From: a virus | Lineage: Duplodnaviria > Heunggongvirae > Uroviricota > Caudoviricetes | Length of the DNA stretch: 32,454 nucleotides | Strand: one strand, 5' to 3' | IMG/VR virus record: IMGVR_UViG_2874945390_000003 | Shown here: in pieces, positions 12,001 through 15,000 of the stretch | Position numbering within the stretch: position 1 is the stretch's first letter | How the letters are laid out: each line of letters begins with the position of its first letter | Position numbers: made by a program

Positions 12001-15000
12001 CACCTTAATCTCCAGTTTTAGCCGCTCATCACTTTGTTTTCTGTCTGAGGGTTCATGCTGTACCCAGTTGTAATAACCGCTCCTGGATACACCAAATACC
12101 TGACACATCGCTTCAATGGGAAATTGTTGTCGCCATTGTTCGACTAACGCGTATTTTTCAGCGACTCCTGTGCAAAATACGCTGTTGCTTTTTTTAATAT
12201 ATCTCGCTCAAGGCGAGCTTCATTTAACGCCTTACGCAGTTGCAGAATTTCAGATTCCAGTTCAGCCACCGTGCGGGAACCAGGAGTACCGAGCCCTTTT
12301 CTGGCGGCGGTAACCCATTGTCCTAAAGTGCCTTCAGGAAGGGATAATCGGGAAGCGCCTTCACTGATCGAAAGTTGATTTTCAAGAACCGTTCTGACAG
12401 CTTCGGCTTTGAACTCTTTAGAGTAACGTTGGGTTTTTCTGCTCATTATTAGCTCCTTCTGATGCCATTCTATTTCAGGAAGGAGTGTCCGTTAAACTCA
12501 GGCTACCTCATATTGGACGTGAAGAGTGCATTTGCATCATGGTATCCCACGAGAGACATTTGTATGCAACTGACGGATACATTCTAACCCACAACACCAC
12601 GCTATACAGCCAGATGGCAATCAACTGCGCAGTGCATGAGAAAAAGCCCGCTCTGATGTTCAGCCTTGAAATGCCAGGTGATCAGATACTGGAAAAACTG
12701 GTAGGGCAGAAGTCTGGTGTTAACCCGAATATTTTTTACCTTCCGGCGACAAATGACGCCGATGACGGCTATCAGGGTGATTACGATGGTGACTTCAACA
12801 GGGCGATCGAAACAGCCAATCGCTTGAGTGAAATCGACCTGCTTTACATCGACGACACGCCGGGATTATCTCTGGCTCAAATCGTCAGCGAAAGCCGTCG
12901 AATCAAGCGAGAAAAAGGATGTGTTGGCATGATTCTGGTCGATTACCTGACACTAATGACCGCTGAAAAGGCCGATCGCAACGACCTTGCCTACGGCATG
13001 ATCACCAAAGGACTGAAGAACCTTGCCAAAGAGCTTGATTGCGTTGTTGTGCTTCTGACGCAGCTTAACCGCGCACTGGAAACCCGAACCAATAAACGCC
13101 CATTACCAAGTGACTCACGAGATACAGGGCAGATTGAACAGGATTGCGATTATTGGGTGGGGATCCATCGTGAAGGTGCTTTTGATGACAGTGTTCCACC
13201 TGGTGAAACCGAACTAATCCTTCGTCTCAATCGTCATGGCAATACCGGCACGGTGTATTGCATTCAGGCAAATGGCGCTATTTATGACACAGACCAACAG
13301 TCTGCTGAAATGCGCCGACGTGAACGCGAGGAACCGCAGTCCAAGAAGAAAGGAGGATTCTGATGACCATCTACATCACTGAGCTTGTAACAGGCCTGCT
13401 GGTAATCGCAGGCCTTTTTATTTGGGGGAGAGGGAAGTGAACGATAGCTACCGACAGTTTGAAAACTGGTGGTCAAAAGACAAAAGCCAGTTCACAGGAG
13501 ACGATGAATTAAAAGAGTTTGCCTGGGTGATATGGCAGGCATCGCGCTCTGCTATTGAACTGGATATCGACTGGCCCGAATCGAATGACGACTTTTGGAA
13601 AGATGGTGAAGAAGGTGCTTATGCGATGGGTTATGAGGATGGGCGTGACAAAACGGTAATTGCAGTAATGAAAGCCATCAGAGCCGCTGGAATTAAAGAG
13701 AAGAATTTTCGATGAAGCAAACAATCTTCCTCCGAACTAAGCAACAACAGCAAGCCGCAATAAATGCCATCCTCTCAACTCCTCTCGATAAAGACAAGCC
13801 AGTCACCATCCGCATTACTGACTACAAGCGAAATCTTGACCAGAACGCAAAATTTCACGCGATGCTGGCGGATATCGCTCGTCAGGTTCAATGGTGCGGC
13901 AAATGGTTAAAACCAGAACAATGGAAGGTTTTGTTGATCAGCGGTCATGCAGTGGCAACAAAACAGGAAGCTGATGTTTTGCCCGGCCTTGAAGGAGAAT
14001 GCGTCAACATTCGCGAAAGCAGCGCGCAGATGAGCGTGAAGCGCATGGCAAGTCTGATCGAGTACACAACAGCCTGGGCTATTGGTCAGGGTGTCAGATT
14101 TACCGACAGGAGGTATGAATGAGGCGACAGCGACGAAGTTTCACCGACATCATCTGCGAAAACTGCAAATACCTTCCAACGAAACGCTCCAGAAATAAAC
14201 GCAAGCCAATCCCAAAAGAATCTGACGTAAAAACCTTCAACTACACGGCTCACCTGTGGGATATCCGGTGGCTAAGACATCGTGCGAGGAAATGACTATT
14301 TATCCGGTGCGCCGCCAGAATGACGGCGCGGTGTGGTTAAACGAAGCGGATCTGGAGTTTTTTTCCAGTAGCGCGGGCGAATTTTTTTAGGGTGGCAAAT
14401 GATGGGCCGCTGATACCTGATGCGAGATTACTTTCCATTCTGGTGATCGCGGTCGCTTTTGTTCCCATTCGCTCGGCAACTTCAGCCTGAGTTAAGCCAG
14501 CTTCTTTGCGTGCTGCCAGCATTTCATCAAGCAGTGCGAATTCGTCAGCGATAGCGTCGTATTCTGCTTTAAAAGCCGGGTCTTCCATCCATTTGGCTGC
14601 CATTTCGTCGTGTGTCATGGTGGGGAGAGTGCGTTTACCAGTCATGCTTAACCTCCTTCATTCTGGTTTCAGCTTTCTTGCGTTCGGCTGGCGGTGTTTT
14701 CTGCGTTTTCTTTACAAAACTATGCAGCATGATGATGCGTTTCCCTGTCAGAGTGCAGTAAAAAACACGCGCGATCCCATCGTTGCCTTTAATTCTGAGT
14801 TCGAAAAGTCCGTCACCAAAGGCGCTGGTGTGAGGTTCTCCGAGATTGCTGCCATATATCTTCATACGTTCAACGAGATGTTGGTATCGGGCACGCATAC
14901 TCAATGGAAGCCGATCGACTTCCAGCCTTACATCTTCACTGTAGTATTCGATAGTGTAGTTCATAGGTATCAACATAACAAAATCGTTATATGCATTCAA

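Follow-up and report, generated by a model that had tools for sequence, protein, structure and literature searches.

In bacteriophage lambda, RNA polymerase modified by N passes the terminator tR2, reaching the nin and Q genes. The ninA-tR2 cassette sits there between ren and ninB, with an ATGA overlap at both ends, and both PMC4824070 and PMC8022706 trace the geometry of such a 'chain of interlinked genes' to Kroger & Hobom 1982; PMC8022706 also calls the nin region nonessential. Li et al. 2016 (PMC4824070) tested lambda tR2 in a plasmid reporter with its natural upstream sequence, NinA start included, and placed it 30 bp past the NinA AUG and 16 bp ahead of the stop. The natural NinA start proved 'not weak' in their hands: when active it cut an upstream RFP to about half, and mutation of the NinA RBS or AUG restored that RFP. 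Translation from this start lowered tR2 efficiency (maximally ~0.9) by only ~10%, and transcripts terminated at tR2 gave non-stop translation. For NinA itself, their text cites Kroger & Hobom 1982 and the lambda ribosome profiling of Liu et al. 2013. Our literature search on tR2 together with tmRNA or non-stop translation returned nothing relevant beyond Li et al., and no detection of the NinA peptide turned up in the papers covered.

The leader-peptide attenuators of trp and pyrBI resemble this arrangement in that a short translated ORF lies beside or over an intrinsic terminator on one transcript. They differ in that ninA-tR2 has no alternative antiterminator structure and carries its terminator inside the ORF, 30 nt past the AUG; moreover, translation shifts tR2 termination by only ~10% (PMC4824070), and read-through is governed by N.

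Here we describe such a locus in a tailed-phage sequence of 32,454 nt (IMG/VR record IMGVR_UViG_2874945390_000003), the whole of which we refer to as the window. An earlier note on this DNA had proposed that a 25-aa hydrophobic peptide, either a small membrane peptide or a translational-coupling artefact, is encoded after the helicase gene. The feature turns out to be the ninA/tR2 cassette of lambdoid phages, which has long been known. Its main job at the DNA level is probably N-sensitive termination, with ninA serving as a translated relay ORF laid over the terminator and the hydrophobicity of its product arising largely as a by-product (probability roughly 0.8).

A hydrophobic ORF laid over an intrinsic terminator

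The AGGAGG, the ATG overlapping the helicase stop as TGATG and the 25-aa ORF were all found in the sequence as previously described. The tR2 terminator inside the ORF and the GTGA overlap with the next ORF had been missed in the earlier note. The features of the region are the following:

11247-12510, opposite orientation to the helicase: IS3-family element, 1264 bp, with transposase domains
12511..13363, + strand: C-terminal fragment of a DnaB-like replicative helicase (an intein end, then the DnaB_C domain)
13351..13356, + strand: ninA Shine-Dalgarno AGGAGG, within the last helicase codons, with a 6-nt spacer to the ATG
13363..13440, + strand: ninA ORF, 25 codons plus TGA, encoding MTIYITELVTGLLVIAGLFIWGRGK
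13392..13415, + strand: tR2 hairpin, AGGCCTGC / loop tggtaatc / GCAGGCCT; 8 bp, of which 6 are G-C
13416..13423, + strand: tR2 U-tract, TTTTATTT (TTTTTATTT counting T13415), upstream of the ninA stop
13424..13434, + strand: GGGGGAGAGGG, Shine-Dalgarno of the downstream gene and 3' end of the conserved cassette
13437..13715, + strand: 92-aa ORF with a GTG start, homologue of 933W L0091 and Nil2 ORF29, of unknown function
13712-14122, + strand: NinB (Pfam PF05772, E=2.5e-56)

At its 5' end, the ninA ATG (13363-13365) shares its A with the helicase stop TGA (13361-13363), so that TGATG spans 13361-13365; at its 3' end, the ninA TGA (13438-13440) overlaps the GTG of the next ORF at 13437, forming GTGA at 13437-13440. 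The duplex of the ninA AGGAGG with the anti-Shine-Dalgarno was calculated at -11.6 kcal/mol, and values at or below -8 were reached in 1.5% of background windows.

A consensus terminator scan returned a single terminator-like site in 12400-14400, and this site falls within the ninA ORF. Hairpin and T-tract together (13392-13423) occupy nt 30-61 of the ORF, in agreement with the geometry described in PMC4824070. The hairpin was present in both the minimum free energy (MFE) and centroid folds and reached -15.7 kcal/mol alone; the fold of the 111-nt whole region was no more stable than its shuffles (z=0.53), and within it the local hairpin alone carries meaning. Unmodified RNA polymerase would be expected to release its transcript in the U-tract. 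No Rfam family was found over the ninA-tR2 site, and a contig scan with the pattern GGCCTGC-N8-GCAGGCC-T5 matched mostly unrelated terminators from many phyla, the pattern being too generic to gauge taxonomic spread.

The predicted peptide has a 19-residue stretch, I3-W21, that is apolar apart from E7 and is followed directly by RGK, an R/K flank. The single transmembrane helix previously proposed is a description of these letters. Residues 11-21, GLLVIAGLFIW, result from reading both arms of the hairpin, its loop and the T-run in the sole open frame (the two remaining frames carry stops), and the transmembrane look is for this reason probably in large part a by-product; with its letters set by the hairpin and the T-run, a membrane function does not follow from it. 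The peptide matched PHROG 5907, a phage protein family of unknown function, with E=1.2e-18, residues 1-25 falling on profile positions 1-25 of 27. No Pfam family matched it, and an exact cluster look-up showed that this exact NinA allele is absent from the protein collection; the lambda form carries the UniRef name 'NinA protein'.

The surrounding gene order (helicase fragment, ninA ORF, L0091-like ORF, NinB) is that of the rightward early (pR) operon of lambdoid phages, where the cassette links replication genes (P, ren or a DnaB-type helicase) to the nin genes; Nil2, P22 and Sf6 agree in this order. The 92-aa ORF matched PHROG 343 (E=4.6e-29), and it terminates in overlap with the start of ninB at 13712. 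Upstream, the helicase fragment (Pfam DnaB_C, E=5.7e-48; also matching PHROG 19) belongs to a C-terminal open frame at 12485..13363. The gene is interrupted within an intein-like insert by the IS3-family element, which is accompanied by a TAT target duplication; excising the element and the 3-bp duplication in silico regained an 826-aa helicase ORF. Further copies of this element lie at 341-1604 and 17559-18822. The window also holds a match to the Shigella sRNA CssrB, which suggests a Shigella chromosome. The prophage is decayed and its helicase split by the insertion, so transcription with coupled translation from the helicase into ninA is unlikely here, and the ninA-tR2 copy in the window is probably a silent relic.

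Comparison with ninA-tR2 of lambdoid phages

We aligned the window with Nil2, P22, Sf6, lambda, 933W and VT2-Sakai. In this 7-phage alignment the window cassette is conserved over ~75 nt, from the ATG to GGGAAG, and the flanks are unrelated on both sides. Only ORF nt 6, 9, 15, 22, 24 and 25 vary, and the tR2 hairpin is invariant across all six named phages. A tblastn comparison against known ninA gave 96-100% identity. The segment 13392-13434, which comprises hairpin, U-tract and next Shine-Dalgarno, is identical to lambda 40597-40639, and the lambda ORF differs from that of the window at nt 15, 24 and 25 only (two synonymous changes and I9V). On the grounds of this identity to lambda tR2, of lambda biology and of database annotation, we infer that the window copy would terminate in an N-suppressible manner.

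At the protein level, NinA of lambda and 933W is 96% identical to the window peptide, and the first 25 aa of P22 NinA (YP_063725.1) are 100% identical to it. The window form has 25 aa against 26 in lambda, the final Ser being missing because the downstream gene differs: the cassette follows ren and precedes ninB in lambda, whereas in the window it follows a DnaB-type helicase and precedes an L0091/ORF29-type ORF. The order of the window is that of Nil2, in which a DnaB analogue, ninA (CAC95090.1) with a 'tR2 terminator' and ORF29 succeed one another. RefSeq P22 lists ninA at 34673-34753 and a terminator at 34703-34728, with helicase gene 12 before and ninB after. The Sf6 gene 45 record reads 'similar to phage 21 NinA', 'terminator; homology to phage lambda; tR2' and 'bsq6; boundary sequence', and that of 933W (Y10775) 'orf4; homologous to ninA gene', with a 'rho-independent terminator' within. 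HK620, like P22, Sf6, Nil2 and 933W, is annotated with 'ninA' and a 'tR2 terminator' inside it. The helicases themselves end as ...AAGGGGCTGACGTATGA in P22 and Nil2 and as AGGAGGATTCTGATGA in Sf6 and the window, P22 and Sf6 have downstream partners other than that of the window, and in VT2-Sakai the window-type helicase end drives orf28 instead of ninA.

Also comparable is gp56 of HK97 (32 aa), which shares the first 11 codons, the position, PHROG 5907 and an in-ORF hairpin with a T-run, but has a different hairpin (GGGGCTAT...GTAGCCC, -12.6 kcal/mol), residues 12-20 rewritten as AIYTVALFY and a longer, acidic tail. This protein is widely mis-named 'histone H1' in NCBI records.

A portable joint with conserved translation signals

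We surveyed ~330 related phage loci, those from IMG/VR being anchored on the hairpin and on three upstream gene ends. With the anchor placed on upstream sequence alone, the ninA ORF lay directly 3' of the upstream gene in ~325 of 349 loci, and its start was ATG or GTG in every locus (GTG in 3 loci, through A-to-G changes). By megablast, the similarity of many Stx phages to the window begins only at 13362/13363. At least seven unrelated upstream 3' ends precede the cassette, including ren, two helicase types, VT2-Sakai orf28 and others, with P-type loaders also among the preceding genes. The location after the helicase gene thus holds for the window and is not specific to the cassette. The upstream junction is invariably ATGA, TGATG or TAAATG.

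All seven unrelated upstream gene ends provide a Shine-Dalgarno with a duplex at or below -5.9 kcal/mol, which 6-12% of background windows from the same loci match; we estimate the joint probability of a Shine-Dalgarno in all contexts at ~1e-7 or less, if the contexts are independent. On the downstream side, the cassette is joined to at least 10 modules, and the 3' sequences diverge past GGGGGAGAG; where the hairpin is of the common type, most downstream modules share GGGGGAGAGGG and diverge after it. In at least 10 modules, the position of the ninA stop relative to the following start ranges from -9 to +11 nt, an ATGA or GTGA overlap being the most frequent arrangement, and the stop is within ~10 nt of the following start in nearly all of the ~330 loci. 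A bare 25-codon open frame has a chance of ~0.3 in random sequence by our estimate, and the ensemble of conserved ORF position, Shine-Dalgarno sequences and linked stops is far beyond chance.

Conservation in related phages was the check proposed for the peptide, and it came out in favour of a real frame, kept in ~325 of the 349 loci with translation signals in all seven upstream contexts; a frame left unconserved and devoid of translation signal, which would have spoken against it, is not what the loci show. Given the conserved frame, the translation signals and the linkage of start and stop to both neighbours, ninA is more than an artefact. Both alternatives of the earlier note, membrane peptide and coupling artefact, find some support; the terminator within had been overlooked.

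Coding constraint and variant alleles

Coding constraint was assessed in 325 sequences with anchors outside the ORF, over codons 2-10, ahead of the hairpin; a sample anchored on the back-translation of MTIYITEL was left out, as it forces synonymous-only variation. Among 20 distinct variants, 10 were synonymous, where the mix of transitions and transversions would lead one to expect 6.1 (P=0.013). Of the 14 variants that recur in at least two loci, not one fell at the second codon position, and the recurrent replacements (I3V, I5V, L8I, I9V, I9M and T10A) stay within I/V/L/M and T/A. These codons carry what appears to be the signature of a translated frame under mild purifying selection, a modest signal in sequences related by descent. 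A pure relay ORF would be indifferent to its residues, and the substitution pattern therefore leaves room for some peptide-level function.

Within the stem, C-to-T changes are the common variants; each retains pairing as G-U while being synonymous, and the RNA and the coding constraint are for this reason inseparable there. Of 281 loci, 9 carry L13Q, a change that the hairpin loop tolerates and that falls midway along the putative helix; alleles with a stop at W21 circulate, as do frameshifts (at codon 2 and in the T-run); a compensatory stem change, G32A+C51T, turns Gly into Asp in one locus; and another locus carries an inverted loop with the stem kept and the peptide altered. In ~10% of loci, a hairpin of the HK97 gp56 type with its T-run occupies the same place, the frame staying open and residues 12-20 being rewritten. 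A third hairpin, related to that type, was seen in one locus, in which the ORF is fused in frame to the next gene. Both unrelated hairpin types leave residues 11-21 uncharged (GLLVIAGLFIW and GAIYTVALFYW). An HNH endonuclease gene has entered the locus of several phages, Stx2a_WGPS6 among them, immediately 5' of the hairpin, so that ninA is split and the terminator left intact. Taken together, the hairpin swaps, the compensatory stem change and the HNH split that spares the hairpin show that the terminator outranks the peptide.

A 34-aa variant, MTIYITELIAGLSLLMVLTVYIIKYILYANKKTN, was considered as a terminator-free hydrophobic homologue and rejected: it consists of the first ninA codons fused to the AT-rich 5' end of the inserted HNH gene, and the tR2 hairpin is intact 0.7 kb downstream.

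Discussion

That this DNA encodes the tR2 intrinsic terminator, and that the ninA start functions in a plasmid reporter, which is indirect evidence of translation, is documented. In the model that we favour, polymerase lacking the N modification would allow the hairpin at 13392-13415 to form and release the transcript in the U-tract at 13416-13423, and N-modified polymerase would read past tR2 into the nin and Q genes. Ribosomes would initiate at the ATG at 13363, either by reinitiation after the upstream stop or directly via AGGAGG. On terminated transcripts the ORF is stopless, and for this reason ribosomes would run off the 3' end and need rescue; on read-through (N-antiterminated) transcripts, they would melt and cross the hairpin and halt at the TGA at 13438-13440, atop the next GTG, presumably handing translation on. 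Judged from geometry only, ninA as a relay may thus couple translation across a structured 75-nt gap.

The alternative closest to the original proposal, that NinA is a genuine single-pass small membrane protein acting in early lytic growth with the terminator dual-coded in its gene, seems to us unlikely, though it deserves more weight than any other. It draws on the 19-residue apolar run I3-W21 with R/K following, on the bias of codons 2-10 towards synonymous or conservative change with no recurrent second-position change, on the apolar in-frame residues encoded by both independent hairpin types, and on a Shine-Dalgarno and start codon kept everywhere in a family recognised as PHROG 5907; the substitution pattern and the uncharged core of both hairpin types are what keep this reading alive. 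Set against these are the lack of a reported function or phenotype in a nonessential nin region (PMC8022706), the circulation of L13Q (9 of 281 loci) and of W21-stop, frameshift, HNH-split and single-locus fusion alleles, and a C-terminal tail rewritten by each downstream module. Furthermore, the statistical signal is modest (P ~0.01, in sequences related by descent), and the product of terminated transcripts is a non-stop fragment bound for degradation (PMC4824070). A more specific form, in which NinA is a selected membrane micro-protein whose codons 10-21 have doubled as tR2 through the hairpin swap and which is made at full length only on N-antiterminated transcripts, we hold to be slightly less probable still; if it were true, full-length NinA would be a built-in reporter of antitermination.

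It is considerably more doubtful that ninA is a leader-peptide regulator, in which ribosome position sets tR2 hairpin formation in an attenuation-like manner tuned by upstream-gene translation. The 5' arm of the terminator, 30 nt past the AUG, would be reachable by a closely trailing ribosome, ATGA and TGATG junctions would bring ribosomes straight from the upstream gene, and ribosomes stopping a few bp ahead of tR2 nearly abolished termination in the reporter (PMC4824070). Yet silencing the NinA start shifted tR2 efficiency by only ~10% in the same work, albeit under de novo initiation, and in the view of its authors the polymerase stays beyond a ribosome's reach over the initial 100 nt of an ORF. 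Neither the MFE nor the centroid fold contains an antiterminator pairing that competes with the terminator; what is seen is no more than a weak stem of 5 bp covering the start codon. Hardest to credit is an untranslated accident, a terminator spacer left open by chance and conserved through its terminator and recombination-linker roles. An open frame of 25 codons is no rarity by chance, termination fully explains the nucleotide conservation of hairpin and U-tract, most genome records (RefSeq lambda included) leave ninA unannotated, and Sf6 lists the cassette as a boundary sequence. However, an accident would have no need of a Shine-Dalgarno in 7 of 7 unrelated upstream ends if no start lay there, of a start codon kept in all loci, the A-to-G changes that give GTG included, or of a stop linked to the start that follows it in at least 10 modules; variation shows three-base periodicity, and the NinA start was active in the reporter (PMC4824070).

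For annotation, "tR2 terminator / ninA" is the label that this stretch should carry, in place of a new membrane peptide, and the case illustrates that in-frame reading of an intrinsic terminator can give the semblance of a transmembrane helix. The substitution pattern lends modest support to a possible function of the NinA peptide itself. In the reading that we prefer, termination with a translated relay, the cassette would combine three functions in 75 nt: it would terminate transcription in an N-sensitive manner, connect neighbouring genes through a translated relay ORF, and offer a conserved joint for the recombination that makes these phages mosaic.

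The helicase gene and its insertions

The DnaB-like replicative helicase gene upstream of ninA lies in two parts, broken by the middle one of three copies, direct repeats of one another, of a 1264-bp IS3-family element that codes for orfA (100 aa) and orfB (272 aa), with rve and HTH_Tnp_1 domains, and that resembles IS600.

341-1604, IS3-family element copy, direct repeat
9616-11246 and 12514-13363, DnaB-like helicase with intein-like insert, two parts
11247-12510, middle IS3-family element copy, direct repeat, in the helicase gene
17559-18822, IS3-family element copy, direct repeat

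The middle copy is flanked by a TAT target duplication, and an 826-aa helicase ORF is regained upon its removal. This copy is itself located within an insert in the helicase P-loop (GARPKMGK / ... YILTHN / T), which is intein-like; its Hint and LAGLIDADG matches are weak (sub-threshold), and its residue 1 appears to be Ala, instead of Cys or Ser.

Other genes and RNAs of the window

3852-3910 (-), lambda cIII thermoregulator (Rfam)
14337-15045 (-), Gp49 (DUF891) / HTH_3 gene pair
15046-15963 (+), isrK and C4 antisense RNA matches with an ORF6N / P22_AR_C antirepressor gene
30919-31098 (+), CssrB, Shigella chromosomal sRNA (Rfam)
31855-32058 (+), IS009 RNA (Rfam)

The cIII thermoregulator match marks the leftward early operon. 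The Gp49/HTH_3 pair resembles a toxin-antitoxin module of the HigB/HigA type and is followed on the opposite strand by the isrK and C4 antisense RNA matches and the antirepressor gene. Both CssrB and IS009 fall beyond the prophage part of the window.

Neighbors and variants of ninA

13437-13715, 92-aa ORF (PHROG 343), 3′ of ninA
L001 (VT2-Sakai) 1714-1983, orf28, 270 nt, helicase-ninA junction

The 92-aa ORF, homologous to 933W L0091, Nil2 ORF29 and Sf6 gene 48, shares a GTGA start overlap with the end of ninA and an ATGA overlap with the start of ninB. Sakai-type Stx phages interpose orf28 (helicase, orf28, ninA), whose start uses the same AGGAGG...TGATG as that of ninA in the window and whose 3′ end overlaps ninA through a separate ATGA.

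Three rare structural variants of the tR2 terminator were seen among the sampled IMG/VR loci: an in-frame, 18-nt duplication of arm and loop (LLVIAG twice), a loop inverted between palindromic arms, and a compensatory double change in the stem (G-C to A-U). The HK97 gp56-type form of ninA, carrying an alternative hairpin (loci L043, L048, L069, L080 and L091, plus one protein cluster), encodes 32 aa. Many NCBI entries for E. coli, Salmonella and Shigella call it “histone H1”, evidently a widely propagated annotation error.

HNH endonuclease genes within ninA

L010 6334-7050, HNH endonuclease gene in ninA
L096, HNH endonuclease gene in ninA
L521 (Stx2a_WGPS6) 591-1248, HNH endonuclease gene in ninA

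At these three related phage loci, a free-standing 203-aa HNH endonuclease gene splits ninA after codon 10 but ahead of the tR2 hairpin. The insertion produces a 34-aa hybrid ORF, MTIYITELIAGLSLLMVLTVYIIKYILYANKKTN, overlapping the HNH start, and leaves the tR2 hairpin intact, directly adjoining the HNH stop. The conserved ninA-tR2 cassette of lambdoid phages seems to be a homing site.
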